A stretch of DNA of 59,782 bases from Blastocatellia bacterium (GCA_046155425.1 JBJXFM010000485.1:1-59782); one strand, 5' to 3'. Shown: positions 17,006-30,163, counted from the first letter of the stretch. Program-made: numbers and translations. Notes: a model not told the origin generated them from the sequence alone.

Positions 17006-17404
17006 TCAGACGTCGCGTGGATTCGGGATCTGGCTGATCATGTGCAGCAACGCCCCCGCGCAGACGAGATAGATGCCATGACGGCTGAAGGGCGTGTCAT
17101 TCAGGTCGGGATGCTGTGGCTCGTAAAAGAAGGCGGCGAGCAGCAGGCCGGTGGACAGCATGACCAGCGCGGACCCGGCGATCTGCGCCCATCCGCGCCA
17201 CGATGCCGGGATCATCCGCAGATAAAGCCCCAGCCCCAGATGCAGCAGCCCGGCCAGCAGCAGGTAAATGTGCCGCGAGCGATAAAGCATGCGCGGCAGA
17301 TCGGGCATGCCATGCAGGTGGTCGTGATAGCGATCCATGTATTGCCCGGTCAGGGCAAAGATGATCAGCGTGGCAATGCCGATGAGCAGATGCGCGCGTT
17401 TCAT
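17006..17404 (-). CDS. hypothetical four-helix membrane protein
   Basis: 132-aa ORF with four hydrophobic spans (LLIGIATLIIFALTG, IYLLLAGLLHLGLGLYL, and others). No family recognised. Confidence 0.6.
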   Translation of the reverse strand: MKRAHLLIGIATLIIFALTGQYMDRYHDHLHGMPDLPRMLYRSRHIYLLLAGLLHLGLGLYLRMIPASWRGWAQIAGSALVMLSTGLLLAAFFYEPQHPDLNDTPFSRHGIYLVCAGALLHMISQIPNPRDV

Positions 17405-17416
17405 AGTCCGTTGTGT

Positions 17417-18022
17417 TCAGAGTGTCTCGCTGACACGCGCCGCGATCACCAGTCCCGTGGACCATTGCATGGTGGTCAGCGCCAGGCAGGGTCGCGCGCG
17501 CAGTTCAGCCATGAGCGCGGCGACTTTCAGGTCGTGTCCCGCCGGCCAGTTTGGTTGCGGCAGCATGTCGTCGATGACATACAGGCCGCCGCGTTTGAGC
17601 AGGCCGAGGGATTCTTCAAGGTGTGAGTACTTGCCCGGCCATGCGTCGGCGAAAATCAGGTCATATCGTTCATAGCGCGGCTGGCGCAGCCACGCGCCGC
17701 CGTCTTCGTTGACGAAGCGGACGCGCGTGTCGCCGCCGAGGTTTTTTCGCGCAATGCCGAGGACTTCGGCGTCTGTCTCGATGGTGGTCAGCTGTGAGGT
17801 GAGGTCCATGCCCTCCAGCATCCATGCGGTCGCCAGCCCCGTGCCCGTGCCAAGTTCAAGGAACTGACCACCGGGCTTGCCGGCCACCAGCGTGCGCAAC
17901 AGCGCCCCTGTCATGTCATCCGAGGCGTATGGAAATCCCATGGCTTGTGTGTCGGCCTGAATCTGCCGCACCCGCGCGGGAATGTTGTCGGGGAACCAGC
18001 TGAAATCCGTGATGATGCTCAT
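17417..18022 (-). CDS. class I SAM-dependent O-methyltransferase
   Basis: 201 aa. SAM-binding FLELGTGTGLATAWM and YDLIFADA, as in family-3 O-methyltransferases. The start overlaps the upstream GNAT stop. Confidence 0.75.
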   Translation of the reverse strand: MSIITDFSWFPDNIPARVRQIQADTQAMGFPYASDDMTGALLRTLVAGKPGGQFLELGTGTGLATAWMLEGMDLTSQLTTIETDAEVLGIARKNLGGDTRVRFVNEDGGAWLRQPRYERYDLIFADAWPGKYSHLEESLGLLKRGGLYVIDDMLPQPNWPAGHDLKVAALMAELRARPCLALTTMQWSTGLVIAARVSETL

Positions 18023-18552
18023 AGCTCGTTGAATTCGGGCATGTATCTGACCAGCCCGCTTTTGCCCGCCGCCGCGCCGGGCTGTAATTCCGCGACCATG
18101 AAATGATCGGCGGGAACCGCGTATTCACAGGCGAATCCCTTTGTTTCCGCCGTGACAAAACCAAGGCGCGGATAATAATCCGCGTGCCCGAGGACAAAGA
18201 CGAGTTGGTAGCCCATGCGCCCGCAGGCCGCCAGACCCGCGCGGACCAGCCGCGATCCCACTCCCTGTTTTTGCGACGCGGGCGCCACGGCCATCGGCGC
18301 AAGACCCATCGCGGTGAAGGTCTCGTTGGCGGAGGCGACGGTGACCGGACTGAAAAAAATATGTCCGATGATCGCGCCTTCTTTTTCCGCGACCAGCGAG
18401 ATGTAGGGCCGCGCGGTCTGGCGCAGGGCGGCGACCAGGCCGGCCTCGCTCTCGCTGCCGAACCGCGCCAGAAAGGCCGCGCGGATGACCCTGTCCACGG
18501 CGGCGTAATCCGCTTCTGTTTCCGGACGGATGGATGGCATGTGTGCGTCCAT
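18019..18552 (-). CDS. GNAT family N-acetyltransferase
   Basis: 177 aa. IRPETEADYAAV...IIGHIFFSPV...QKQGVGSRLVRAGL is the acetyl-CoA-binding motif. The start may instead be the internal Met at 18540. Confidence 0.8.
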   Translation of the reverse strand: MDAHMPSIRPETEADYAAVDRVIRAAFLARFGSESEAGLVAALRQTARPYISLVAEKEGAIIGHIFFSPVTVASANETFTAMGLAPMAVAPASQKQGVGSRLVRAGLAACGRMGYQLVFVLGHADYYPRLGFVTAETKGFACEYAVPADHFMVAELQPGAAAGKSGLVRYMPEFNEL

Positions 18553-18587
18553 TCTTTGAAAAGGTCTTTATCTCTTTGAAAAAATCT

Positions 18588-19385
18588 TTATTCGCCTTTT
18601 TTCTGTCCTGGCGCGAGGCGCAGCTTTTTGGCGTCACGCGTCAGATAGACCGTATAGCCATAGAGATCGCTGCGATAGAGCGTATGCACATATTCAATGG
18701 GCCGCCCCTCGACGGTGAACACGGTGCGTTCGATGGACAGGAGCGGTGCTCCGATGCGGACATCGAGCAGGCCGGCGACATACGGGTCGGCCAGCGCGGC
18801 GGTGATCCGTTGCCGCGCATCGCGCAGTTTAAGCGCGAATTTTGTTTCCGGCAGCCGCGGCAAGGCGCCGGTGTTCAGTTCCTCGGGCGAGAGTTGCGAA
18901 CCGATATCCGCCGGCAGGTAATTGACGATCAGGCTGTCCGGCTGCTCGTCACGCAGGCGCAGGCGTTTGAGGCGATAGAGCGTGTCCCCGGGGGTGATAA
19001 CGAGGATTTCGGCCTCGTGGGCGTCGGCGTCGACACGGTTCATTTCCAGCGCCCTGACCAGCGTGTCCTGGCCCATGCTGATCAGTTCATCCAGCGATCC
19101 GGTCAGGTGAATGGCGCCATCGAAACTTTTACGTTGCGTGCGGCGTGCGGCGACAACGGCGCCGCGCCCCTGCCGCCGTTCAATCAGCCCTTCCCCGGCC
19201 AGGGTGGACAGGGACTGGCGGACGGTGATGCGGCTGACGCCATATTGCTCGATCAGTTCGCTTTCCGTCGGGAGGCGTTCGCCGGGGCCAAACGCGCCGG
19301 ACAGGATTTTTTCGCGCAGCAGGTTTTCCAGCTGGTAATAGAGTGTGACACGGCTGCTGGCAAAAGATGATCTGGGACGGGCCAT
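18588..19385 (-). CDS. GntR family transcriptional regulator, HutC subfamily (UTRA effector domain)
   Basis: 265 aa. Winged-helix LPTESELIEQYGVSRITVRQSLSTLAGEGLIERRQGRG followed by a UTRA-like C-terminal domain. Confidence 0.85.
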   Translation of the reverse strand: MARPRSSFASSRVTLYYQLENLLREKILSGAFGPGERLPTESELIEQYGVSRITVRQSLSTLAGEGLIERRQGRGAVVAARRTQRKSFDGAIHLTGSLDELISMGQDTLVRALEMNRVDADAHEAEILVITPGDTLYRLKRLRLRDEQPDSLIVNYLPADIGSQLSPEELNTGALPRLPETKFALKLRDARQRITAALADPYVAGLLDVRIGAPLLSIERTVFTVEGRPIEYVHTLYRSDLYGYTVYLTRDAKKLRLAPGQKKGE

Positions 19386-19388
19386 AGG

Positions 19389-19438
19389 GAAGGCGGAATC
19401 ATCGGGAGCGTATTGTGCGCGGCGGCGATTCCGCCTTC
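19389..19438. promoter_or_regulatory. perfect 12-bp inverted repeat directly upstream of the GntR start
   Basis: gaaggcggaatc (19389-19400) and gattccgccttc (19427-19438) are exact reverse complements with a 26-nt spacer. It lies between the DUF4288 stop (19489) and the GntR ATG (19385). It could be a terminator/attenuator hairpin or an operator. Confidence 0.4.
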
Positions 19439-19488
19439 GCCGCAGTGTTTGTGTCCGGGCAGCTCGGCTTTCACCTTTCGCGGGTGAA

Positions 19489-20001
19489 CTATTTTGCCTT
19501 TTTTCTGCCGGCTGTTTTTTTTGCCGGCGTCGTTTTCTCCTGCGTGTGCCGCTCTTCTTTTTCCGCCTCTTCCATCATGGCGCGGGCCAGTTCGCGGTCC
19601 ATGAAGTTGATGCGCTTGCCGTGCAGGACCTCTGTTTCGTCCTGGCCGAAACGCGCGTTGACCAGCGCGGCGTCCGTTTTGCCGCGGCTGACGATTTCCG
19701 TGGCGGAATAGATCTCGACGCCGGCCCCGGGGTCGGCGAGCAGTTCATACAACTCGCATGTGTCCAGATAACGCGCCTTGACGCGCTGGCCGAGCACGCT
19801 GGTGAAATCGACGCGGTCGCAATAGGCGCGGGCCTCGTCCTCGGCCTTTTTCAGCGCTTCGTCCTCGTTGCGGGCGCGGAACAGGACCACGCGTTCCTCG
19901 GCGAGGGTGACGTTGGGATCATAGCCGCGCGTTTTGTATTCGGGCTCCCCGTGGGCCTCCAGACGGAACAGTGTTTTGACCGAGTACCATACCCATGCCA
20001 T
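19489..20001 (-). CDS. DUF4288 domain protein with basic C-terminal tail
   Basis: 170 aa. WYSVKTLFRLE...ERVVLFRARNEDEALKKAEDEARAY...GAGVEIYS fits my recollection of the DUF4288 pattern. The tail is TTPAKKTAGRKKAK. Confidence 0.6.
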   Translation of the reverse strand: MAWVWYSVKTLFRLEAHGEPEYKTRGYDPNVTLAEERVVLFRARNEDEALKKAEDEARAYCDRVDFTSVLGQRVKARYLDTCELYELLADPGAGVEIYSATEIVSRGKTDAALVNARFGQDETEVLHGKRINFMDRELARAMMEEAEKEERHTQEKTTPAKKTAGRKKAK

Positions 20002-20105
20002 TAGCGCACCAGCCTTTTCTTGTCCTGCCAGTATTGTTCACGCAATTCGCGGCGCAGGATTTTGCCGGTCAGATTGCGAGGTGATTTCCCGGTGAAAATC
20101 CGGTG
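20001..20105 (-). pseudogene. 3'-terminal remnant of an AMP-dependent synthetase/ligase (acyl-CoA synthetase-type) gene
   Basis: Own translation of the minus frame ending at TAA 20003-20001: ...IFTGKSPRNLTGKILRRELREQYWQDKKRLVR*. It carries the conserved C-terminal (T/S)GKI(L)RREL ligase motif. There is no start codon and no similarity further upstream. The stop overlaps the DUF4288 ATG (TAATG). Confidence 0.6.
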
Positions 20106-20375
20106 ATTTTGCCTGCCGGGATTGGCAGGTATGCGAACTCTGAATAGTCCGGTGTCAGAGGGCGTACACACAATTCCCGCCCGGCGCCCGCGCCTGCGGT
20201 GTCGTTGGTCGCGCTTGTCTGACGGAAAACAACGTTGGGATGCCTGAAACAGTCTTTGACAGGCAAAAGTATACTGTTGTGCGCTTCTTATGACAATACA
20301 GCCAATCGCCTTTCACAGGGGATAGACGGGGTGAAAACGCATTCGCCGGATGCGTCCATGCCTTGCGCGGCGGCA

Positions 20376-20404
20376 TTGACAATCAGCGTACCGAGGCATA
20401 TGTT
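20376..20404 (+). promoter_or_regulatory. candidate sigma70-type promoter upstream of the orphan cluster
   Basis: TTGACA (20376-20381), a 17-nt spacer, then TATGTT (20399-20404), in an AT-richer intergenic stretch ~185 nt upstream of the ATG at 20589. Pattern match only. Confidence 0.25.
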
Positions 20405-20588
20405 CAGCGCATAAACAATTTGAATCACAATTGGATATTGGGGTTTGCGGATTTTCCGGCTCGCCGGCGCGTTTGACGGGCGCCATCGGGGAACAGGCGT
20501 GAATCGGACATGACCAGCGGATGGCGTTTCCGTAAAAGCAGGCGGGCTGTCATCGAAACTGATTTCTGTACTGCAGGAAAGGCGTTTC

Positions 20589-21113
20589 ATGGCGGATATC
20601 GACATTCATTATGACCCACTGGCCGTTAACGTTAACCCGAGCACGGTGGCGCTGACGGGGCTGAATGATATACAGAGCCGGATTACGCTCGAGACACCGC
20701 AACCGGTGCGCGCCGACACGCGCACGGAGCTGGTCCTGCCACAGCCGTTCAGAACGGAAATAAATGTTCCCGATCCGATTCGCACGGAAAGCACGGCGGC
20801 GCTGGATATCAGACCACTGGCGCTGGATCAGTGTCTCAACCTGCGTTTCGCGCCATTGCCGGCGACCTGTGTCCGCCTGCCGTATCAGCAGCATGTCGGG
20901 TTGACGTGGTTTGGCGTGGAAATCCTCGGCCTGACATTGCGCGGCGAGGCGCAGACCATCGTCGAGCCGTTGCCCGACAAACCAAAGGTTGTCTGGGGCG
21001 CCACGGAATCAGCAATACGGCCTGGCGATGGCGCGACGCATGACGCCATACATGGAGAAGGCTGCGGAAATCCGCCTTCTTCACAGGGCGCGCTGCGCAT
21101 ACGGCTGGGATAA
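20589..21113 (+). CDS. orphan cytoplasmic protein A with PxP-h-R-T-E repeats
   Basis: 174 aa. The ATG is preceded by AGGAAAGG. No signal peptide or TM. Contains PQPVRADTRTE / PQPFRTE / PDPIRTE repeats (nt 20697-20789). No family recognised. Confidence 0.7.
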   Translation: MADIDIHYDPLAVNVNPSTVALTGLNDIQSRITLETPQPVRADTRTELVLPQPFRTEINVPDPIRTESTAALDIRPLALDQCLNLRFAPLPATCVRLPYQQHVGLTWFGVEILGLTLRGEAQTIVEPLPDKPKVVWGATESAIRPGDGATHDAIHGEGCGNPPSSQGALRIRLG

Positions 21114-21146
21114 GGCGCGGCCGTCCGTGAAACACGGGAGGAGTCC

Positions 21147-21968
21147 ATGAGCACAACGGAGAAAAAATCCAGACCTGCCATACAGCATGTTCACATTCAT
21201 GGTCCCGGGGGCGATGGAGCCATTGTTCTGGCTGGCGACCCGGCGTCCATCACGGGTGTCGTGCGCCTGCACAACCGCGGACCCGAGAAAATCATCGTGC
21301 GTGAGGCCTGGTTGCTGAACCTGAAGTTGCATCTGTCGCAACCCGAGGGGGGCACGGCGCCGGCTTGTCCGGTTTCGTTTTCGGGCATGACAGTTGATCC
21401 GGGCGCCGCGCAGACGGTGTCGCTGCGGCTGGATCTTGACCGGCGGACGCCGCCGGGCGAATACCAGGGTGAACTGCACATGGCCGGGCTGCAAACCCCG
21501 GCGCGTCTTTATGTCATGCCCTCCGTCCGCGCGCGTGTTTCTCCACGCCCCTGTGTCATCGACCGGCGCGCTGGCGCCAGCGTCACGGCACACCTGGCCA
21601 TCGCCAACGAAGGGAATGTGCCGCTATATCTGAGCGAAATCGGGCAGGTTCCGCTGTTCGAGGACCTGCTGTTGCGGCGCAGCGTGGCGTCCATTCTGTC
21701 CGGTGACACGCCCGCGCTGCTGGAAAACCTCGCGCCGAAAGCGGCGGATGATGGCGGCGCCGGCGGGGCTGTCAGCCCGCAAAAGGGCACGCTGCTGATT
21801 CGCAACGAGGCGTTGACGCTCGCCCCCGGCGAAACGCGCCGCGTGGAAATAGAGGTACGGTTGCCGGATCATCTGCAACCAAATACGCGGTATCTGGCGC
21901 GCTTCCCGCTGTACACCACCGAGATTGAATTCGTTATTGTCCCGTCGGGTAACCCGGCGCCGGATTGA
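21147..21968 (+). CDS. orphan cytoplasmic protein B with two beta-sandwich (Ig/CARDB-like) modules
   Basis: 273 aa with a strong SD (GGGAGGAG) 4 nt upstream. Two modules with alternating-hydrophobic strand patterns: ITGVVRLHNRGPEKIIV...MTVDPGAAQTVSLRLDL and VTAHLAIANEGNVPLYL...LTLAPGETRRVEIEVRLP. No signal peptide. Confidence 0.75.
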   Translation: MSTTEKKSRPAIQHVHIHGPGGDGAIVLAGDPASITGVVRLHNRGPEKIIVREAWLLNLKLHLSQPEGGTAPACPVSFSGMTVDPGAAQTVSLRLDLDRRTPPGEYQGELHMAGLQTPARLYVMPSVRARVSPRPCVIDRRAGASVTAHLAIANEGNVPLYLSEIGQVPLFEDLLLRRSVASILSGDTPALLENLAPKAADDGGAGGAVSPQKGTLLIRNEALTLAPGETRRVEIEVRLPDHLQPNTRYLARFPLYTTEIEFVIVPSGNPAPD

Positions 21969-22021
21969 CCCGGACGTTCGCGGGTATCAAAACAAAGTTC
22001 GCATTACTGGAGGAACAAAGC

Positions 22022-22753
22022 ATGCAGAACACGATGTCACATGTGATGGGCGGGGATGCGCGGCGGATGTTTCCGGACAGGAGCGCGGCTGTTCAGCCAC
22101 GCGCCTGCGACGCCTGCGGGCGCGCCCTTGCTCCCGCAGGCGCGGACTGGATGGGGCAATGGTACGACGCGATGTATCGCGGCGCGGCCCCGCTGGCCGG
22201 CCAGATGATGACGGAGGTGATGCGGACATGGGATCGCATGGCGCGGGGCATGTTCGATTCGCTGACACCGCCGCCCATGCCCGGCGCGCATGTCGCGAAT
22301 TGCGGTTGCGCGCGTTGCCGCCCGGACGATTGCCACTGCCGTTGTTGCGTCGTCAACGCCGATCTGCTGGTCAACGCGCGTGTCGGGGAACGCCGCGTGG
22401 TTCCGCTGGTCATCGAAAACAACATGCGGCGCGAACGCGAAGTTTCCCTGGAACTCAGTTCGTGGACAAACCGCGATGATAAGGGAATCCAGGTCGCCGG
22501 GCTGATCGAGGGACCAACGAAATTCACGCTGAAGGCCTGCGAAGAGCGCGTCGTCACGCTCATCGTCAATGTCAGCGGTGCGCCAACGCCGGGGGCGAAC
22601 GAAAACAGAATGCAGGACGTGACGGAATGCCAGGTCGTGTACGCCGATCTGCGTGTCGTTGGCTGTGACATACGGCCCATCCGCATTGCCGTCAGCGTGT
22701 TGCCACGCGATTGCGGCCCCACGCGCATCGATTGCCGCTGCGGGTGTTGCTGA
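22022..22753 (+). CDS. orphan protein C: Met-rich N-terminus, Cys knot, one beta-sandwich module, CRCGCC terminus
   Basis: The start is moved to the ATG at 22022 (GGAGGA 7 nt upstream). An in-frame TTG at 21965 that overlaps the B stop is an alternative. 243 aa. By my count, 12 Met in the first 90 residues. NCGCARCRPDDCHCRCC at nt 22301-22348. 17 Cys in total. The protein ends ...DCGPTRIDCRCGCC. Confidence 0.75.
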   Translation: MQNTMSHVMGGDARRMFPDRSAAVQPRACDACGRALAPAGADWMGQWYDAMYRGAAPLAGQMMTEVMRTWDRMARGMFDSLTPPPMPGAHVANCGCARCRPDDCHCRCCVVNADLLVNARVGERRVVPLVIENNMRREREVSLELSSWTNRDDKGIQVAGLIEGPTKFTLKACEERVVTLIVNVSGAPTPGANENRMQDVTECQVVYADLRVVGCDIRPIRIAVSVLPRDCGPTRIDCRCGCC

Positions 22754-22806
22754 CAGTTCCGGAAACGCGTGTGACCGGACAAGAGGGGCCGAATGGGGAA
22801 AAAGCC

Positions 22807-23622
22807 ATGGCGAATGAATTACAGAATCTGAGCGACTGGATGCAGGGACTGCTGTCACGTTCGGTCGAGGAACAGTTGCGCGCCTCGCAGCGTTATTTCG
22901 AGGTCATGCAACGCGCCGGGCGCGGCGAGTTGTTGACGCGGCCGGCCGGGGAAAATTACTGGCGTTTCGTGCAGGAAGAAGGAACGCGGTTCGCGCGCGA
23001 CTGGACGACACTGACAGTGAATTATTACAACGGGCTGGCCGAACTGGGCCGCGCGTGGAATGACACATATTTCGAACAGGTGCTGGGCATGCGTGTGACC
23101 GAGGGCGCCATGGCCACGGCCGGCGTGGCGCACGAGGGGCCGCATGCCGCGCCGGCGCCGGTTGCTCCACGGCGCGTCGAACTGGAAATGCGCGCGGCCA
23201 GCGGGACTGAGGCGACCGCTGCGTTTGCGCTGGAAAACAGACAGAACGAGGCGCTGCGGATTTCGTTTCTCGTGTCGGATTTTGTCAGCGCCGACGGGAC
23301 AAGTTCACTGCGCCCGCCGCTGCAAATAGAGCCCTCCCGCTTCACGCTGCCCGCCGGGATGGAACAGGCCGTCACCCTGCGCCTGCCCGTGACCGCCGAA
23401 TTCCTGCCGGGCCAGCCATACAGCGCGACGATTGTCGTCCAGGGATATGACCATCTCGAACTGATCGTGCATCTGCTGGCGGAACCATCCCCCGTGATCG
23501 AAGCGCAGAACATGGCGGCGCATAAAGCCGCGCCAAAGCGCGCGAAAGCAAAACCGGCCGGCGCGCCGGCGCGCGGCAAATCTCCTGAAACGGCCGGCAG
23601 ACGTTCAGGCAGCCGCCGCTGA
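22807..23622 (+). CDS. orphan protein D: helical phasin-like N-terminus, one beta-sandwich module, Lys/Arg/Ala/Pro tail
   Basis: The start is set at the ATG at 22807 (MANELQNLSDWMQGLL...). The module contains ATAAFALENRQNEALRISFL...FTLPAGMEQAVTLRLPV...YSATIVVQG. The tail is HKAAPKRAKAKPAGAPARGKSPETAGRRSGSRR. Confidence 0.75.
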   Translation: MANELQNLSDWMQGLLSRSVEEQLRASQRYFEVMQRAGRGELLTRPAGENYWRFVQEEGTRFARDWTTLTVNYYNGLAELGRAWNDTYFEQVLGMRVTEGAMATAGVAHEGPHAAPAPVAPRRVELEMRAASGTEATAAFALENRQNEALRISFLVSDFVSADGTSSLRPPLQIEPSRFTLPAGMEQAVTLRLPVTAEFLPGQPYSATIVVQGYDHLELIVHLLAEPSPVIEAQNMAAHKAAPKRAKAKPAGAPARGKSPETAGRRSGSRR

Positions 23623-23682
23623 CAACGCCGCCGCTGACAACTTTGACTCTTCACCCGGCAGGCGATCACACCACCTCCACGA

Positions 23683-26190
23683 ATGGACCGAAAGAGCAGC
23701 AAACGTCGTAATGACACGAAAACGGCGGCGGCCACGCCCGCGCCGCCACGCGCCCGTGGAAAGAAAGCCTCCAAAGACACGGACCCGGCGTTCCTAGCTC
23801 CTGCGGCGCTCGCGAATCCGCCGCGAAAACGCGCACGGGCAGGCGCGCCGCCATCATCCGCACAGCCGTCATCCGCCCGCGCCGAAACGTCGCATGCCGA
23901 AACGCCCCTTCCGCCCAAAACCCGCGTCGCCATTGCCGATGCGCCAGGGCAGGACAAATTCGCATTGCTGGAATCCGCGTTGCGGCAGGCGGGGTTCCGG
24001 GAACATCTGGCGGCGGCCTGCCAGCGCGGACCGGGTTCCCCGGACGCCATGCGCATCCTCATCAAACCGGACTTCAGTGTCTTTGAGGCGCACGGCGCCA
24101 CGGGCACGGACCCGGCGCTGGTCGAACATCTCATCGACCTGCTGCACGCATGGGGTTACACCAACGCACAGGTTTGCGAGGGGCCGAACAGTTTCGATCT
24201 GTGGCTGGAAAACCGCGATGTCCTCGTCCTCGCCGAAATGATCGGATACCGCTTTGTTACGCCGGCAGGCAATTCATATGACGTCCTGGATCTCAGTGAA
24301 GATGTCATCCCATTGGACTTTCCGGCCGGCAGCGCCCTGCACGGCGCCGGGCTGGCGCGCGTATGGGTCGAGGCCGATTACCGCATTTGCTTTGCGCGGA
24401 ACAAGACGGACGAGGAAGAGTTTTACGCACTCGGCCTGCACAACCTGGCGGGCGCGTTGCCGTTGCGGGACAAGGATTACCATTACCGGCATCGCCTTGA
24501 TCCGCGCGATGTCGCGTCTGAATTGCTGCGGCGGACGCCGGCGCATTTCAGCGTGATTGACGCCTCGGTCAGCAACCATGGCGGCGCCGGCGCGCGCGTT
24601 TCCCATCCGCTGGCGACCGCGACCATGATTGCCAGTTCCGACCTCCTGCTCGCGGACTGGGCGGCCGCGCGGAAAATGGGGCTGGATCCGTATGTCTCGC
24701 GGCGCAACGCGGCGGCGTTGCGGGAAATCGGCCTGCCGGTGGCCTATGAAGTCGCCGGCTCGCTGGCGCCGTATCCCGGCTGGATCAACGTGCATCCGCT
24801 GATGGCCGATTCCGTGCGGCGGCGCAATCGTTCGCTGACCGTGATGCGCCTGCTGGCGCCATGGCTGCAAACGGCCGATCCGGCGCTGTTCCCGTTCCGC
24901 GATGTCCTCAATGAGCGGCTCAACAACCTGCTGGCGCGCAATCTGTCACGCCCGGACGAACAGCCGGGAACATTCTGGGCCACGGTCGCGCTCAACTATG
25001 CCCTGGGCGCGGCGCACGACGGCGTGACGACATACCAGACGCTGTTCGACAAGGATCGCCTGCGCTGGCGCGAGGCGCCGCTCAATATCGACCTGCTCGA
25101 ACATCGCCTGACGGAATACGAGGCGATTGTCGACTATCTGGCGCCGCTCGCAAACCTGGTGGCGGACGCGCCGGCGGATCGCGAGGGACTGCGCTGGTGT
25201 GATTACGGCAAATCCGTGCTGTTCAGCTTTTCCCGCGTGATTCCCGCGCCGTATGACGATTTTGTCGCGCGTGTCGCGATCACCGAGGCCATTCAGCTGA
25301 TGAACGATTACATCGGCGGCGTCGCGGTTCCGGTCGCGCACGACGCCGATGGGCGCGTCACGCATCAGGCCGAACGCAATCTGTATCTGCCGCAACCGAA
25401 TTACCTGGCGCTGTATCAGGGAGAAATCATTGATGTGACGAAGCTCGAATACATCGTGTATGAAGCCGGCGCGCGGCGCATTTACTGGCGCACGGTGAAA
25501 AGCGCCAACGCCTCGGCGGAATACGACGACGGCATGGTGACATTCGCCCGGACGGAAGCGGGCGAAACACTGGTGACAATCATGGGGCGGCAATTGTTCA
25601 CCCTGCCGGTGTTCTGGAAAATCGTCAATCTCGAACTGAATCCCATGCTCAGGGAATATCTGGTGGCCAATGCATACAGCGATTTTTTCACGCGGACGCT
25701 GAACAATTTCGAGGCGAAATACGAGGGCCGCGAAATCCGCATCGGCCGCGCGTGGAATCACGAACAGGGCGAACCCGGAGCCGCGGCGAACGAACGCATG
25801 CCAGCCGAAGTGGTGGCGGAGCTGCTGGGCCGCGCCGGCGCGGCGGTCAATCGCAACTGGGACACGATCGCGCGCTTTCTGCCGCGTAAATATCAAACAG
25901 AGAAGTCGGCACAGGGGCCAGCACAGGGGCCAGGGCCCGATGCGGGCGCGGGACACGGGGCTGTAAATGGCGTTGCGCGGGGCGTAGTCGATGAAGACGG
26001 CTTCACACACGTACGCCCGCCGTCGGGCGATGCGTTTGTCACGAACGGGGTGGAGGATTCCGCCGCGACGGAAACAGAAGACGATCTGCGGCGTCTTTTC
26101 AATCGCGCCAAAAGCGGTTCGCGGACATTTTTCAAAGACCTGACAGCGGCCGTCAAAAAGGATCTGGGCCGGCCGGGGAAACAGGACTGA
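23683..26190 (+). CDS. basic disordered N-terminus + DUF362 domain + unassigned ~350-aa C-terminal region
   Basis: 835-aa ORF. The first ~110 residues are Lys/Arg/Pro/Ala-rich. DUF362-like pattern: MRILIKPDF...TDPALVEHLIDLL...ADYRICFARNKTDEE...FSVIDASVSNHGG...MIASSDLLLADWAAARKMGLDP. The C-terminus LRRLFNRAKSGSRTFFKDLTAAVKKDL looks amphipathic. There is no obvious SD, so the start is uncertain. Confidence 0.7.
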   Translation: MDRKSSKRRNDTKTAAATPAPPRARGKKASKDTDPAFLAPAALANPPRKRARAGAPPSSAQPSSARAETSHAETPLPPKTRVAIADAPGQDKFALLESALRQAGFREHLAAACQRGPGSPDAMRILIKPDFSVFEAHGATGTDPALVEHLIDLLHAWGYTNAQVCEGPNSFDLWLENRDVLVLAEMIGYRFVTPAGNSYDVLDLSEDVIPLDFPAGSALHGAGLARVWVEADYRICFARNKTDEEEFYALGLHNLAGALPLRDKDYHYRHRLDPRDVASELLRRTPAHFSVIDASVSNHGGAGARVSHPLATATMIASSDLLLADWAAARKMGLDPYVSRRNAAALREIGLPVAYEVAGSLAPYPGWINVHPLMADSVRRRNRSLTVMRLLAPWLQTADPALFPFRDVLNERLNNLLARNLSRPDEQPGTFWATVALNYALGAAHDGVTTYQTLFDKDRLRWREAPLNIDLLEHRLTEYEAIVDYLAPLANLVADAPADREGLRWCDYGKSVLFSFSRVIPAPYDDFVARVAITEAIQLMNDYIGGVAVPVAHDADGRVTHQAERNLYLPQPNYLALYQGEIIDVTKLEYIVYEAGARRIYWRTVKSANASAEYDDGMVTFARTEAGETLVTIMGRQLFTLPVFWKIVNLELNPMLREYLVANAYSDFFTRTLNNFEAKYEGREIRIGRAWNHEQGEPGAAANERMPAEVVAELLGRAGAAVNRNWDTIARFLPRKYQTEKSAQGPAQGPGPDAGAGHGAVNGVARGVVDEDGFTHVRPPSGDAFVTNGVEDSAATETEDDLRRLFNRAKSGSRTFFKDLTAAVKKDLGRPGKQD

Positions 26191-26243
26191 ACGACAGGGC
26201 GAGGACGCGTGTGAGCGGAAACGATTCTTTCCATGGAGCAGGC

Positions 26244-27335
26244 GTGAAAGTACTGGTCACCGGCGCGAGCGGGCTGATCGGCGCGAGTCTCGTGCGGGAA
26301 CTGCTGACGGCGGGATGCCACGTGCGCGCGCTGGTCCGCCCGACCAGCGATCCGCGCGCCCTGGCGGGCCTGCCGGTCGAGATTGTCCATGGTGACATCC
26401 TCTCGCCGGACAGCCTTGCCGCGGCGGCGGCGGATTGCGAACTGTTGTTTCATACGGCGGCGATTTTTGCCTATCAGGGGCATACGGACAGGCAACTCGA
26501 AAGCGTCGCGGTGGATGGAACGATCAACGCGCTGGAAGCGGCGCGGCGCGCGGGTGTGCGGCGTGTCACGCTGACATCGTCAAGCGTGACCCTCGGATCC
26601 GCCGCCACGCGGACGATCCGGGATGAAAACGATACGCTGACCGGCGCGCCGGATTCCGCCTACGCCGCTGCCAAGGTCCGGCAGGAACAGGCGGCGTTCG
26701 CCCGCGCGGCGGAGCTGGGGCTCGATCTCGTGGTTGTCTGTCCGACGATCACCGTGGGGCCGCACGATTTCCGCCTGAGTCCGAGCAACGGGGCGATCAT
26801 GACGTATCTGGCCGATCCTTTCCGCATCACCTTTCCGGGCGGTTGCAATGTCGTCGCGGCGCGGGATGTGGCGCGCGGGCATCTGCTGGCGGCGGCAAGG
26901 GGAGAGACAGGACAGCGTTATGTCCTTGGCGGCGAGAACCTGGAATGGATCGACATCCATCGCCTGATCGCGCGGCTGTGCGGCGTGCCGGGACCGCTGT
27001 CCTTTACGAACCATACCGGGGCTTATCTGACGGCGGCGGCGCACGAACTGGTGTCGTGGCTGGGGCGCAGGCCGCCAACGACCACGCGGACACAGGCGCG
27101 CATGGTGGGACGTTATTACTGGTACCGGCACGAACGCGCGGCCGCGCTGGGATATGCGCCGGCGCCCGCCCGGGAAGCGCTGGCCACGGCCGTCGCCTGG
27201 CTGGCGGCCAGCCCGCATGTTTCACGCGCGCTCCGCGCCACGCTGCGTCTGTCGCGCGAGGTGTATGACGCGCGGCGAAAGATGGAGCAGGCCGAGGCCG
27301 CGTTGCGTGGAAGGCCGGTAGCCGGTGGACGGTAG
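26244..27335 (+). CDS. NAD(P)-dependent epimerase/dehydratase-family SDR (dihydroflavonol-reductase / HpnA-like)
   Basis: (M)KVLVTGASGLIGASLVRELL Rossmann motif and YAAAK catalytic motif. I prefer the GTG at 26244 (GGAG 6 nt upstream) over the track start at 26211. Confidence 0.8.
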   Translation: MKVLVTGASGLIGASLVRELLTAGCHVRALVRPTSDPRALAGLPVEIVHGDILSPDSLAAAAADCELLFHTAAIFAYQGHTDRQLESVAVDGTINALEAARRAGVRRVTLTSSSVTLGSAATRTIRDENDTLTGAPDSAYAAAKVRQEQAAFARAAELGLDLVVVCPTITVGPHDFRLSPSNGAIMTYLADPFRITFPGGCNVVAARDVARGHLLAAARGETGQRYVLGGENLEWIDIHRLIARLCGVPGPLSFTNHTGAYLTAAAHELVSWLGRRPPTTTRTQARMVGRYYWYRHERAAALGYAPAPAREALATAVAWLAASPHVSRALRATLRLSREVYDARRKMEQAEAALRGRPVAGGR

Positions 27336-27438
27336 CTCTGAACCAGGTTCATGGCGAGCTCCCAGCCTTGTCTTTATTAGGGATTGTGAATCGGAGCATC
27401 GAACATCAATCAGAAACTACCGTCTACCGTCTACCGTC
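27313..27438. repeat. inverted pair of 7-nt x3 tandem arrays spanning the SDR stop codon and the next gene's leader
   Basis: ccggtag ccggtgg acggtag (27315-27335, including the TAG stop) against ctaccgt x3 (27417-27437), which are reverse complements apart from 3 positions. The spacer is 81 nt. Confidence 0.6.
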
Positions 27439-27467
27439 TTCTGTGAAATTTGAAATAAGAGGATCGC

Positions 27468-28007
27468 ATGAAAACCTTCAGCAGCATTGTTGTCGTCAAA
27501 CATCCGCGCGAGCTGGTCTGGACAACCATTCGCGATCATTTGCCGGAACTGACGCCGTTTCTGGACGACATTGACGCGATTTCCGTGTCGGAACGCGACG
27601 AAGAGCCGAATGGCACGGTCCGGCTGGTCAACCTGTGGAAAGCGAGCCCGCCGATTCCGGCGTTGCTGTCCTCGGTGCTCGATCCGGAGATGCTGGCGTG
27701 GGTGGATCGCGCCGAATACCAGCCGCAACAGTACGAATGTCACTGGCAAATCGAGCCGCGTTTCTTTCCGGACCGGACGCGCTGCGCCGGCGTGACGCGT
27801 TACGAAACGGCGCTGGGCGGCCGTGGCACAAAGATTACGTTCAGTGGCGGGCTGGGCGTGGCGATGGAAAACCTGGCGGGTGTCCCCGCGTTTATGGAAG
27901 GGACGGTCAGGCGCGGCGTGGAATCCTTTGTGACCACGCTGATTCCCAAAAACTTTCGCCGCCTGACCGATGCGCTCTCGCAATATCTGACGCGGCAGGG
28001 CGTCTGA
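27468..28007 (+). CDS. SRPBCC (START/polyketide-cyclase-like) family protein
   Basis: 179 aa. The N-terminus SSIVVVKHPRELVWTTIRDHLPEL and the overall size and pattern are typical of the SRPBCC ligand-binding fold. The SD AAGAGGA lies upstream. Confidence 0.6.
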   Translation: MKTFSSIVVVKHPRELVWTTIRDHLPELTPFLDDIDAISVSERDEEPNGTVRLVNLWKASPPIPALLSSVLDPEMLAWVDRAEYQPQQYECHWQIEPRFFPDRTRCAGVTRYETALGGRGTKITFSGGLGVAMENLAGVPAFMEGTVRRGVESFVTTLIPKNFRRLTDALSQYLTRQGV

Positions 28008-28011
28008 ACGC

Positions 28012-29232
28012 TCACGGTCCGCCGATCAGGTGCGCGTGGTGAAAGCCCAGCCGCGGGTCGGCGAGGCGAGGCAACGAAGGGACGTAATCGTGCAGCGGCG
28101 GCATCTGCACGCGGAAACGCAGGGTCGTTTCGGGGTAATCGTAAATCGTAATGTGGTTGAGGCCACGGTTGGCCGTGAACAGCAACGACTGATCCGCCGA
28201 GAGCTGACAGCCATAAATCGAATCGAGCAGGGAAAAACGGCTGACGCGCATGGCGCCGAAAAAATGCCGGTTGCCCGTGAAAAAACCGCCGCGGGCGAAT
28301 ACGTCATACACCTGTGTCGCGATTTCACGCGGATGCCGCAGGCTGGTCAGCAGGTCGGGCCGCTCATCGATCAGGCGGAAATCGGCCATGGATTCCAGGT
28401 CGATGAGGACCACGGACTGGCTGCCGCCGTTGCAGAAAATCAGCTCGCGGTCCGAGATCGTCACGTCGGAATTGATATGCGCGGGTGTTTCCCGCGTGGT
28501 CGCCCAGTGCCGCCGCACCTGTTTGCTTTCCGCGTCGACCTCAAAGGCGTATTCCTTGAGAAAGGCCATCGCCCATTCGTGATAATCGACATAGTCCTGG
28601 GGCAGGACGCGAAAGGAAACGCAGTAAAACAGGTCCTCGCGCGGATGGCAGACGAGGTGCCAGCAGGTCGCCGGCAATTCAATGCGCGTGGCCTGACCGG
28701 TCCGCATATCCCAGACGCCGACTTCGCGCGCTTCTCCATGTTTCGGGTGATCCATCGAGCCGTAGCAGAGATATTTTTTCGAGGGCGTCAGTTTCATCGA
28801 ATGCGGCAGCTTGACGAGATGCGGGCCGAGGCGTTCACCCTTTGACAAATCGCGCAGGTTGAAACGGTAAAAATAATCACCGATGGCCGTGATGAATTCC
28901 TCGTTGTTCAGCCATACCAGATGCGTGCTGCCGCGCAGGGAGGTGTCATTGGCCTCGAAACGCAGGGTGGAAATGCGCCCGATTTCACTCAGGTCCGCCG
29001 GATCGAAAAAGAGCAGGTGCTGCCCGGCGTTTCCCAGAAACCCGGCCGTGCCCGCCGGGTTGACGCTGACCCAGTGCCCGGCGGCGATGCCGGGGAAATA
29101 ACGGATTTTCCAGGCATGCGCCTGACCGGCCGGGTTGTACAGAAACAGACACACACCCGCCATGCCCTCAAGGCCGTTAATGCCATTGCCATCCAGCGCT
29201 ACGTAAAAGGCGTATGGATACCCTTTCAGCAT
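28012..29232 (-). CDS. hypothetical 406-aa protein (beta-rich, possibly propeller-like; no family recognised)
   Basis: Long ORF with no signal peptide. It converges on the SRPBCC gene with 4 nt between the stops. No motif I can name. Confidence 0.6.
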   Translation of the reverse strand: MLKGYPYAFYVALDGNGINGLEGMAGVCLFLYNPAGQAHAWKIRYFPGIAAGHWVSVNPAGTAGFLGNAGQHLLFFDPADLSEIGRISTLRFEANDTSLRGSTHLVWLNNEEFITAIGDYFYRFNLRDLSKGERLGPHLVKLPHSMKLTPSKKYLCYGSMDHPKHGEAREVGVWDMRTGQATRIELPATCWHLVCHPREDLFYCVSFRVLPQDYVDYHEWAMAFLKEYAFEVDAESKQVRRHWATTRETPAHINSDVTISDRELIFCNGGSQSVVLIDLESMADFRLIDERPDLLTSLRHPREIATQVYDVFARGGFFTGNRHFFGAMRVSRFSLLDSIYGCQLSADQSLLFTANRGLNHITIYDYPETTLRFRVQMPPLHDYVPSLPRLADPRLGFHHAHLIGGP

Positions 29233-29448
29233 GGTTCACCCTTGCGGATCGCTCCGCGCCAGAACTGCCAGAACTGGTTGATAATCTGCGTTGTTTGAGA
29301 TGAGCCGAGTATAGAAGCAGCCATGTGGTTGCGCAATACGGCGGCCGCCGCGGAACGGAATTCACCCATCCGTTTCCCGCCGGCGGCTGGTGGAAATGAT
29401 CCGCGCCCGGGTTGATACGGAGGAAGCGCTCATGGAGCAAAGGGTGTC

Positions 29449-30039
29449 ATGCTGAAAAAACAGACAGGAGAAGTCAGGTTGCCAGGCGGCGTCGCGGACA
29501 GCGTGTGGCAGCGCGTGTTCGCATATCTGTTCGCATACCTGGATGCCCGCGAGGCGGGGCTGGTACGGATCATGGTCAGCCAGTGCGGGGCGCCACACTG
29601 GCGCCGTCTGTGGATCACGCTGAACCGGCTGGGGAATGGCTGGCTGTATCTGCCGCTGGCCGTGCTGGCGCCGCTCCTGGCGGGGCGGCGGAGCATCCCC
29701 TTTTTGCGGGTGGCCGCGTTGTCGCTGATCGTGGCTTTTCTGTTGTATTCGTTTCTCAAACCGCGTCTGGCGCGCCTGCGTCCCTGTGATCTGGATCCGG
29801 GGATGTCGACGGCCGTGCTGGCGCTGGATAAATATTCCTGTCCCAGCGGGCATTGCATGACGGCGGCGGCGATTGGCTATCCGCTGGCGCACGAGTTTCC
29901 GTCATTGCTGTTGCTGGTGATCGCCGGCTGGGGGCTGATTGCCTGGTCGCGGCTGTCGCTGGGGCATCATTACCCCACGGACCTGCTGGCCGGAGGGCTC
30001 ATCGGCGCCGGGGTTTCCTGGCTGATTTCCGCTTTGTGA
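29449..30039 (+). CDS. PAP2 family phosphatase (membrane)
   Basis: KPRLARLRP...PSGHCMTAAA...SRLSLGHHYPTDLLAG are the three PAP2 motifs (KxxxxxxRP, PSGH, SRxxxxxHxxxD). Confidence 0.85.
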   Translation: MLKKQTGEVRLPGGVADSVWQRVFAYLFAYLDAREAGLVRIMVSQCGAPHWRRLWITLNRLGNGWLYLPLAVLAPLLAGRRSIPFLRVAALSLIVAFLLYSFLKPRLARLRPCDLDPGMSTAVLALDKYSCPSGHCMTAAAIGYPLAHEFPSLLLLVIAGWGLIAWSRLSLGHHYPTDLLAGGLIGAGVSWLISAL

Positions 30040-30163
30040 ACGGGCGCCGGCGCGCGCGTGTCTGGTGACCCGTTTGACAAAGGGACATGGATGGCCGGAC
30101 TATGCCAAATCACGATAAATTCTCCGCCGCCGCGTCCCCGGGGAACACAACGTATTTACCGGC

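Follow-up and report, generated by a model that had tools for sequence, protein, structure and literature searches.

A conserved bipartite gene system pairing a putatively structural cassette with a probably lipid-linked enzyme module in Blastocatellia and other bacteria

PhaF and PhaM, proteins of polyhydroxyalkanoate (PHA) granules, combine an amphipathic helical domain with a K/A/P-rich basic C-terminal tail. Family 2 encapsulins carry polyprenyl transferases or terpene cyclases as cargo, and in the loci of glycyl radical enzyme-associated microcompartments (GRMs) structural genes flank glycyl radical enzymes. By analogy only, phasin-coated inclusions and encapsulins with terpenoid enzymes appear to be the closest described counterparts of a gene system found on a 59,782-bp contig (JBJXFM010000485.1, in its entirety called the window here) from a metagenome-assembled genome (MAG) of Blastocatellia (Acidobacteriota). 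This system is undescribed, conserved across phyla and bipartite: it comprises an enzyme-type core, E-F-G-H, often accompanied by a gene for a PAP2-family phosphatase, and a cassette of four genes, A-B-C-D, whose products look structural and non-enzymatic. A search of the literature on DUF362, START, HpnA, glycyl radical, phasin and isoprenoid themes found no description of the system, and the database names of E, H and B homologs are all "hypothetical" or "DUF362 domain-containing".

An E profile was scanned against one genome per GTDB species, which gave 157 loci, 80 of them retained; overall, 84 E-ascertained loci were analyzed. These represent at least 12 phyla; the 80 retained from the scan fall in Verrucomicrobia, Chloroflexi, Acidobacteriota, Cyanobacteria, Nitrospirota, Alpha-, Beta- and Gammaproteobacteria, Bacteroidota, Actinomycetota, Fibrobacterota, Gemmatimonadota, Ignavibacteria and Binatia, with Mitsuaria sp. 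WAJ17 and Massilia frigida CCM 8695 as cultured carriers. An E homolog has also been binned in a MAG of a Methanomassiliicoccaceae archaeon (L015, JACXTO010000070.1), on a contig of 2.7 kb that may be genuine or mis-binned. When the window proteins were used as tblastn queries, E was detected in 84/84 loci, F in 79/84, G in 75/84 and H in 71/84, together with PAP2, adjoining the core, in about 22-23/84. The corresponding counts for the cassette were 28/84 for B, 20/84 for D, 12/84 for A and 9/84 for C; iterated profiles raised them to 33/84 for A, 32/84 for B and about 38-45/84 for the C/D pair. Over the same loci, tblastn identities are 21-55% for A-D versus 59-75% for H.

Gene maps resolve two separable modules, a near-universal E-F-G-H core (sometimes with PAP2) and an optional A-B-C-D cassette. 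On long contigs, E homologs are found in the same order, continuing into G, a convergent H and often PAP2; H lies either upstream in the core or convergently downstream. Co-occurrence of the A-H genes in dozens of unrelated genomes is far above chance, and the conserved unit is larger than A-F, including G, H and PAP2. The original prediction, made from the window sequence, had delimited the cluster to 20589-27335, which is too short, and had treated A-E as one group; A-D are physically coupled to E-F-G-H-PAP2, and E is placed with the enzyme module E-F-G-H instead. The prediction had also proposed looking for conserved synteny among homologs, and this synteny is strongly conserved. Gene content, synteny, domain folds, paralogy and alternative partner modules are shown for the system by the present survey.

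The cassette is always ordered A-B-C-D, but where it lies with respect to the core, and on which strand, differs among loci. It is located upstream of the core on the same strand in the window and in loci L001, L004 and L006, divergent from the core in L011-L013 and L045, after G in L009, L024 and L036, after H in L039, L077 and L080, and about 5 kb from the core in L022 and L067. In Saprospiraceae the order is A-B-C-D-H-E-F-G, with the cassette directly 5' of H, and Cyanobacterial-type contigs carry E-F-G-A-B-C-D-H on a single strand. The loci of Alphaproteobacteria contain E-F-G-H-PAP2 without A-D. Adjacency that has been re-formed in varied arrangements across phyla argues for selection on linkage.

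Since all of these loci had been ascertained via E, a reverse search was made with a trimmed alignment of the C-terminal motif of A against metagenome contigs, yielding 53 loci. In 50 of the 53, as far as the contigs allow, B comes after A and precedes two or three C/D paralogs; A-B-C-D is a fixed unit, and the cassette recurs across more than a dozen bacterial phyla. Among the A-ascertained loci, nine long contigs have E-F-G-H (with or without PAP2) next to the cassette, and another four show part of it. E-H is absent within 10 kb on seven long contigs (L100, L104, L109, L125, L127, L134 and L136). On four of these seven, the cassette runs directly into genes for a polyprenyl diphosphate synthase and a geranylgeranyl-reductase-family flavoprotein, and the other three have one or both of these families nearby. 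One such joined synthase/reductase region without E-H lies at L125:13133-15627. The cassette-linked synthase matches PF00348 at about 1e-55, with the short-chain IdsA and the geranylgeranyl diphosphate synthase models as its best in NCBIfam, and the reductase scores 201-205 bits against TIGR02032, above the cut-off of 158.8.

Two further arrangements connect the cassette to prenyl synthesis. In L138 and L139 the synthase gene is located inside the cassette (L138:11561-12589, on a 95-kb contig), giving the order A-B-C-synthase-D, and in L040 it adjoins a cassette that also has E-H. Four unannotated genes follow the L138 cassette and encode proteins of 132, 101, 341 and 145 aa, the last of which is SCP2-like by eye; the 341-aa protein contains a YHDHNWGSW motif and had no significant relative in a PDB search. 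Considered together, the recurrent neighbors in the surveyed loci are E, F, G, H, PAP2, a glycyl radical enzyme and its activase, the polyprenyl synthase, the geranylgeranyl reductase and ABC-transport genes. With E-H and synthase/reductase as two different partner sets, the common denominator is suggested to be a long hydrophobic isoprenoid-type lipid. The original prediction had suggested a possible association with a metal or a polyanion; the synthase and geranylgeranyl-reductase partners point to an isoprenoid lipid instead.

Family 2 encapsulins resemble this situation in that a protein assembly, proposed here for A-D, is genetically coupled to isoprenoid enzymes. Unlike encapsulins, however, A-D are Ig (immunoglobulin)-like or helical, and no HK97-fold shell or encapsulin family was found in Pfam or NCBIfam scans of the locus. 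Against NF041169, the "family 2 encapsulin cargo polyprenyl transferase" model, the cassette-linked synthase reaches 151-154 bits versus a cut-off of 450, a score that reflects general similarity among short-chain prenyl synthases. An encapsulin nanocompartment was rejected on both grounds, the missing shell family and the distance of the cargo model from its cut-off.

E is a multidomain protein whose conservation extends over about 600 residues of the alignment, with many polar residues invariant. Its AlphaFold2 model, with a predicted local distance difference test (pLDDT) score of 72 overall and >90 over most of the core, is divided into a disordered basic tail (residues 1-73), a DUF362/LarA-like domain (80-360), a helical segment (372-494), a beta-sheet with a long helix (504-681), a disordered linker containing DEDGFxHF, and a terminal helix (796-827). 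Residues 125-330 match DUF362 (PF04015) over the full profile (E 1.6e-16, 61.4 bits versus a cut-off of 24), and Foldseek relates the N-terminal domain to the lactate racemase LarA (2.4e-4). DUF362 and the LarA N-terminal domain belong to one Pfam clan (PMC11770544). For residues 504-681, the Foldseek matches are STARD4 (6e-6), StAR (1e-5), STARD3, STARD5, CERT and bacterial START-like proteins including TTHA0849, with E values of 6e-6 to 1e-4, probability 1.0 and target TM-scores of 0.49-0.69; pLDDT values for blocks of this domain are mostly 82-97, with two blocks lower, at about 63-66. This part of E is accordingly modeled as a START/helix-grip domain at the level of the fold only, as the region had no sequence-family match in Pfam, and a PDB sequence search with E found no significant relative. 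Of the original description of E, the basic disordered N-terminus, the DUF362 domain and the terminal helix hold, and the ~350 residues left unassigned there prove to be the helical linker and the START-like domain.

The terminal helix of E carries the motif F..DL..A..KD, which is kept in almost all E proteins whether A-D are present or absent. Its role as a cassette-specific encapsulation peptide was considered and rejected on account of this conservation without A-D. The N-terminal tail of E, by alignment, ranges from 0 to >150 residues and is often extremely K/R/S/T/P-rich, resembling histone H1.

F is an extended short-chain dehydrogenase/reductase (SDR), as had been predicted (Epimerase 6.8e-30, 104.7 bits, passing the cut-off; 3Beta_HSD 1e-18). 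Its closest NCBIfam models are HpnA (TIGR03466, 250.8 bits versus a cut-off of 367.65) and the sterol demethylase reductase SdmB (NF052578, 151.3 versus 600), and by these scores F is related to both and a member of neither. G shows a weak match to Polyketide_cyc2 (E 0.023, 15.4 bits versus a cut-off of 27.4) covering profile positions 3-140 of 142; the best match of the G profile in the PDB was DR_A0006 at only E 0.98, and profile-profile comparison detected no relation between G and the START domain of E. The PAP2 protein contains a clear PAP2 domain (3.6e-18, 66 bits versus a cut-off of 27.2), and its best NCBIfam model is the undecaprenyl-diphosphatase SepP (1.7e-10), with both SepP and PgpB below their cut-offs. 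The SDR likeness of F and the superposition of the E C-domain on StAR, STARD4, STARD3 and CERT, in company with SCP2-like proteins in variant loci, recall hopanoid biosynthesis and START/SCP2 lipid transfer. Unlike those systems, no squalene-hopene cyclase or other hpn gene was recognized among the conserved neighbors, and the DUF362-START fusion of E and the propeller of H have no characterized counterpart.

H is the most conserved component, with 59-75% identity by tblastn across its 71 loci and 62-75% in all but one. His53, 104, 138, 144, 192, 242, 252, 398 and 399 are invariant, as are several Asp, Glu and Cys residues. AlphaFold2 predicts a beta-propeller with a helical insert (pLDDT 85.7, predicted TM-score 0.89), for which Foldseek returned only generic propellers (NirN, BtuG, WD40). 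No relative of H was found in Pfam, NCBIfam or the PDB, the last being queried with both a single sequence and a profile. A carotenoid-oxygenase-like nature was considered for H and is given no support by the top structural matches. The family is sizeable: 840 clusters at 90% identity were found, every one of them named "hypothetical".

A second enzyme appears where H is missing. The six loci without H (L022, L067, L036, L038, L044 and L052), from four lineages (Bacteroidales, Acidobacteriota, Fibrobacterota and one unclassified MAG), all carry an ~825-aa glycyl radical enzyme, which occurs in 0 H-bearing loci (Fisher p 2.7e-8; 4.6e-6 with near-identical loci collapsed). The L022 enzyme (5339-7816) matches PFL-like at 4.5e-160 and Gly_radical at 7e-19 and belongs to the PFL2/glycerol-dehydratase family; among solved structures PFL2, CutC, glycerol dehydratase and HypD are the closest, and the cut-off of subfamily TIGR01774 is not reached (578 bits versus 678). 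An activase is recognizable in five of the six loci (TIGR02494, 263 bits versus a cut-off of 174, within L022:5339-9835), and three (L022, L067 and L044) encode a small SCP2-like protein whose matches are sub-threshold and cover the full profile in two independent sequences. Because few lineages are concerned, this pattern is suggestive, not proof, of a swap between H and the glycyl radical enzyme. The absence of H where the glycyl radical enzyme is present points to a possible exchange of aerobic and anaerobic enzymes, in which H would perform a step that anaerobes accomplish by radical chemistry, or would itself require O2. Genes for B12-binding radical SAM proteins are located beside the cassette at L022:679-2016 (-), L067:668-2005 (-) and L038:14257-15666 (+).

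These loci are reminiscent of GRM microcompartments. In L022, L067, L036 and L052 (four of the six), A-D lie directly 5' of the glycyl radical enzyme, and across the four lineages the cassette precedes a PFL2/eliminase-type enzyme with activase and oxidoreductase; the amphipathic terminal helix of E, following a disordered linker, is also formally encapsulation-peptide-like. Unlike GRM systems, however, the E helix is kept without A-D, and most loci use the H propeller instead. Neither BMC-H (PF00936) nor BMC-P (PF03319) was detected when A-H, and homologs of A and C, were scanned with Pfam, and a bacterial microcompartment was rejected since no such shell family was present.

A is a repeat protein with three P[QD]P[VFI]R[AT][DE] copies at residues 37, 51 and 61, in agreement with the PxP-h-R-T-E repeats first noticed. 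The short N-terminal repeats are variable among homologs, and a C-terminal core of ~50 residues, P..R.H.P...FG.E....GE.Q.I.E.Y.P, is kept. Neither window A nor diverse homologs match a Pfam or NCBIfam family, and profile-profile comparison finds A unrelated to B, C and D. B is characterized by the motifs TPPGxY and NxGNVP and contains two Ig-like beta-sandwich modules, as had been anticipated; each of them matches the D sandwich in profile-profile comparison (96.6% and 95.7% probability). The first module passes the Pfam NPCBM_assoc/NEW3 cut-off (2.5e-6, 28.0 bits versus 24.4). As a precomputed NEW3-type match exists in only 2/54 B homologs, B is regarded as a distant member of this fold class, not of a functional family. 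The B family comprises 1018 representatives at 50% identity with E<=1e-3, or 741 with E<=1e-10, and the best 150 of the 1018 are stand-alone proteins of 161-447 aa. A subgroup of 320-348 aa (P0348, P0352, P0362, P0367, P0383 and P0394) has an N-terminal extension of ~75-100 residues and may represent an A-B fusion.

C and D are paralogs over a helical domain and a sandwich (99.2% probability, E 6.7e-20, 194 columns), so that one Ig-like module occurs four times per cassette, twice in B and once each in C and D. The repeated modules originally proposed are real in this sense: one beta-sandwich and helical domains build B, C and D. C contains 17 Cys, including CGCARCRPDDCHCRCC and the terminal CRCGCC, which bears out its description as a protein with a Cys-rich segment and a CRCGCC end. 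Most C members have the arrangement CC.IPE..CPP.C with a C-terminal W..HF.C..PC and a variable tail; the window subgroup has C.C..C.P..DDCHCRCCV with a terminal -C.C.CC. The C-termini of window-type proteins (CRCGCC, CRCACC or CACGCC; 22733-22753 in the window) resemble a lipidation signal.

D has a helical N-terminal domain of ~95 aa, one module and a basic tail, all three visible in the alignment and profiles as predicted; the K/A/P-rich tail is frequent among D homologs and absent in many members. A shortened form, mini-D, consists only of the helical domain and a K/R/A/P-rich tail (110-150 aa) and accompanies E-H where the full cassette is missing (L005:9494-9925, L007:9345-9884, L016:3429-3887, L061:9168-9590 and L075:13908-14279), in Betaproteobacteria, one Gemmatimonadota MAG, and some Verrucomicrobia and Acidobacteriota. 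D and mini-D resemble the phasins PhaP, PhaF and PhaM in the combination of a helical N-domain with a K/A/P-rich tail and in being small, cytoplasmic and non-enzymatic. Weak, sub-threshold Phasin_2 (PF09361) matches occur in 2/10 D or mini-D proteins, both of them mini-D (17.6 and 21.1 bits, E 4.6e-3 and 3.8e-4, versus a cut-off of 24.9); window D has none, and the profile of the D helical domain found nothing in the PDB. Unlike phasins, D contains an Ig-like sandwich, found in no phasin, and the partners of A-D are isoprenoid or lipid enzymes, not polyester enzymes. PHA synthase is absent from the recurrent neighbor families of the surveyed loci.

PDB profile searches with the B and D sandwiches returned nothing specific, generic Ig, CBM (carbohydrate-binding module) or NEW3-type matches at most, and homologs of C, D and mini-D have no specific Pfam, NCBIfam or PADLOC family. 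The orphan status assigned to A-D therefore stands for A, C and D, and is qualified in B by the generic NEW3/NPCBM_assoc match; that match aside, no profile in Pfam, NCBIfam, PADLOC or the PDB places A-D in a known system. The conserved columns contain no catalytic-type residues: in B the invariant residues are limited to Pro, Gly, Tyr, Asn and Leu, the helical and sandwich profiles of D retain a single Pro, C its Cys motifs, and A Pro, two Gly and Glu. By their sequences, A-D would be structural, non-enzymatic proteins. A defense system was also considered and rejected, since no PADLOC component was matched: the anti-phage models gave no match for A-G or PAP2, and the single match of H (E 0.023) is noise.

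The link of the system to lipids is reasonably supported. Lipid handling in the core is suggested by the START-like domain of E, the HpnA/SdmB/3beta-HSD-like character of F, the PAP2 protein and the SCP2-like proteins of the variants, and the isoprenoid reading by the synthase and geranylgeranyl-reductase partners of cassettes without E-H. We propose that the core is a cytoplasmic set of enzymes and lipid-binding proteins acting on a hydrophobic, most likely isoprenoid-derived, substrate. In this set, E would fuse a DUF362/LarA-like catalytic domain to a START-like lipid-binding domain, F would serve as an HpnA/3beta-HSD-like NAD(P) oxidoreductase, G would be a small, possibly SRPBCC-like protein, and H would be a metal-enzyme-looking beta-propeller, absent in anaerobes having the O2-sensitive glycyl radical enzyme. 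PAP2, often part of this module, would act as a lipid-phosphate phosphatase.

The second module would be non-enzymatic, combining a repeat protein with three proteins of Ig-like modules, two of which have amphipathic, phasin-like helical N-domains. Tentatively, A-D are proposed to act within this bipartite system as scaffold or coat proteins for a hydrophobic compound of isoprenoid origin, an interpretation drawn from the phasin-like helices, the pairing of helix and K/A/P tail, the repeat protein, the four-fold module and the fast evolution of the cassette. Such a scaffold or coat would sequester or organize the hydrophobic isoprenoid product or intermediate, perhaps together with its enzymes, in the cytoplasm. 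The helical domains of C and D may touch the lipid phase, and the complex may be anchored to a polyanion, for example the nucleoid, by the K/A/P-rich D tails and the basic N-terminal tail of E, as happens with PhaF and PhaM on PHA granules. That the substrate is isoprenoid, and that the proteins contact lipid, assemble and are tethered, are points that we infer. The original prediction had favored a self-assembling structure rather than a metabolic pathway; this opposition does not hold, as the cassette is coupled to E-F-G-H-PAP2 with its START-like and SDR components, and the earlier interpretation is, overall, partly supported.

Several points weigh against this proposal. Self-assembly of A-D is deduced rather than observed, the phasin similarity is sub-threshold and the PDB profile searches gave no specific relative. 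The cassette is dispensable for the core, being absent in Alphaproteobacteria and reduced to mini-D in Betaproteobacteria. F falls below the equivalog cut-offs of HpnA and SdmB, the SRPBCC assignment of G is weak, and the SCP2 matches are sub-threshold. PFL2/eliminase-type glycyl radical enzymes normally use small polar molecules and fit poorly with a lipid. The basicity of the E N-tail shows a weak trend with the cassette or mini-D (median net charge +3.5 or +5 versus 0), and this link to A-D hinges on uncertain start codons. Finally, no polyprenyl synthase or geranylgeranyl reductase homolog occurs in the window, and so the isoprenoid link of this particular locus depends on homologous cassettes elsewhere.

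A bolder version of the scaffold or coat proposal may be considered, each part of which is more doubtful. A-D might constitute a new cytoplasmic structure for isoprenoid-derived lipids, either a body scaffolded or coated by protein or a complex that holds prenyl chains. Its being pluggable onto different enzyme sets (E-F-G-H, the glycyl radical enzyme, or the pair of polyprenyl synthase and geranylgeranyl reductase) is a comparably speculative suggestion. With similar reserve, H and the DUF362-START protein E could be new lipid-modifying enzymes, an aerobic propeller having a glycyl-radical alternative in anaerobes. If this were true, bacteria would handle very hydrophobic isoprenoids in the cytoplasm in an undescribed manner, by means of a modular non-enzymatic cassette exchanged among lipid enzyme sets. 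A function would then be at hand for the orphan families H (840 clusters at 90%) and B (about 740 clusters at 50%) and for the ~750-aa DUF362-START proteins, a likely O2-dependent versus glycyl-radical enzyme swap would be placed in an uncharacterized pathway, and parts would be available for engineering terpenoid storage or channeling. Even without assembly, the E-F-G-H core, which occurs in cultured strains, is a defined target in the search for a new lipid or isoprenoid pathway.

Alternatively, A-D may not self-assemble into a structure at all but act in soluble form, carrying or chaperoning prenyl or isoprenoid chains. Beta-sandwich lipid-binding domains are well established in eukaryotes, and each Ig-like sandwich core could hold a hydrophobic chain in the manner of RhoGDI, PDE6-delta/UNC119 or ML/NPC2-type domains, so that intermediates would be handed between the synthase/reductase, or E-H, and the membrane. 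The same linkage to polyprenyl synthase, geranylgeranyl reductase, and START- and SCP2-like proteins agrees with carriers, as do the four sandwich modules per cassette and the small size and cytoplasmic nature of the proteins. However, the likeness of A-D to those prenyl-binding sandwiches is conceptual, by genetic linkage only: PDB searches detected no sequence similarity to them, and matches were limited to the generic Ig, CBM or NEW3 type. Carriers would also leave the repeat protein A, the phasin-like helices, the Cys clusters and the polybasic tails unexplained. We consider this explanation rather unlikely.

A different role for the Cys-bearing proteins is improbable, namely that A and/or C are substrates, lipidated (for instance S-prenylated) or otherwise modified on conserved Cys, with B and D as recognition or escort factors and the polyprenyl_synt-family neighbor supplying or transferring the prenyl group in a ComQ/ComX-like fashion. 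Among 72 distinct A termini, 22 are Cys-X, typically E[ILV]CR, and the -CC ends of window-type C proteins are similar to the CC/CXC motifs of Rab-type geranylgeranylation. The polyprenyl_synt gene within the L138 cassette and the B12-radical-SAM genes near three loci of the glycyl-radical-enzyme type could be fitted in as well. The terminal Cys is, however, not universal: window A ends in LRIRLG, and most C proteins end in the W..HF.C..PC motif and its variable tail. Furthermore, no protein prenyltransferase alpha/beta family was seen, most loci have no synthase within 10 kb, and the Cys-rich segments are equally compatible with metal binding.

In a version closer to the original prediction, A-E would build an inclusion in the cytoplasm that holds a metal or a polyanion, either polyphosphate or nucleic acid, and F would be incidental; we consider this slightly more improbable still. 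It would account for the conserved clusters among the 17 Cys of C and for the polybasic disordered tails of D and E, and a polyphosphate kinase gene does lie in one locus (L142), ~2.4 kb 5' of E and ~6.6 kb 5' of A. Yet no metal transporter, ferritin-like nucleator or polyphosphate enzyme is recurrent among the neighbors, the recurrent partners being lipid and isoprenoid proteins; as enzymes, E and F go with G and H, not with A-D; and the basic tails are missing in many members. A metal or polyanion may still have a secondary role, given the clusters of Cys in C and the basic tails on D and E. Lastly, that A-D and E-H are functionally unrelated, or A-D fast-evolving accessories without a common function, their adjacency being historical, is very improbable: many E-H loci have no cassette and the cassette occurs elsewhere without E-H, but adjacency has been rebuilt in many arrangements across phyla, the cassette order is invariant, and the alternative partners share one biochemical theme.

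The layout of the locus in the window is given in Table 1. Its E and H proteins have counterparts with 100% identity among MAG records at NCBI, whereas an exact-sequence look-up of E in the contig index returned no entry. A-F are six closely spaced plus-strand genes, as first described, with intergenic gaps of 33, 53, 53, 60 and 20 nt. The strong Shine-Dalgarno (SD) sequences attributed to A, B and C are present (AGGAAAGG, GGGAGGAG and GGAGGA, respectively); SD-like motifs also precede F and G, and none was found upstream of E. For C, the ATG at 22022, which follows GGAGGA, is preferred over a TTG at 21965, and for D the preferred start is the ATG at 22807. Kyte-Doolittle means over 19-residue windows do not reach 1.6 in any of A-H (F peaks at 1.59) and are <=1.28 in A-E, in line with the predicted lack of transmembrane helices and signal sequences in the latter; the PAP2 protein reaches 2.22 and has transmembrane-like segments.

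Table 1. Positions of the cassette, core and associated features in the window
Feature	Position	Strand	Description
Sigma-70-like promoter match	20376..20404	+	TTGACA-17-TATGTT; 10/12 positions; within the 587-nt gap 5' of A; tentative
A	20589-21113	+	174-aa repeat protein
B	21147-21968	+	273 aa; two Ig-like beta-sandwich modules
C	22022-22753	+	D paralog; helical N-part, Cys-rich segment, one beta-sandwich, terminal CRCGCC
D	22807-23622	+	Helical phasin-like N-domain, Pro/Ala linker, one beta-sandwich, K/R/A/P-rich tail
E	23683-26190	+	835 aa; DUF362/LarA-like and predicted START/helix-grip-like domains
F	26211-27335	+	374 aa, GTG start; extended SDR
G	27468-28007	+	179-aa conserved protein; possibly SRPBCC-like (tentative); beyond the coordinates first reported
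H	28012-29232	-	406-aa orphan beta-propeller (predicted); convergent with G; beyond the coordinates first reported
PAP2	29449-30039	+	PAP2-family membrane phosphatase (polyprenyl-diphosphate or lipid-phosphate phosphatase type); divergent from H

In the promoter and terminator scan, the number of matches in the region was not clearly above the expectation from shuffling, and an Rfam scan of 19950-30200 found no riboswitch that would name a ligand. The GC content of the region (0.60-0.65) is like that of the whole window (0.57-0.67), as had been judged by eye, and a recent genomic island is excluded because of this match to the flanks. Five minus-strand genes lie 5' of A at 17006-20001, none of which recurs in related loci: a DUF4288 protein with a Lys-rich tail (19489-20001), a GntR/UTRA regulator (18588-19385), a GNAT acetyltransferase, an O-methyltransferase-like gene and a small membrane protein. 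Just 3' of PAP2, at 30164-32839 (+), is a gene for a TonB-dependent receptor with an N-terminal CarboxypepD_reg domain, a type that is typical of Acidobacteriota and is not kept beside the system in other loci. Farther away, positions 2539-8466 (-) contain a very long open reading frame of 1975 aa with coding-like GC content at third codon positions.

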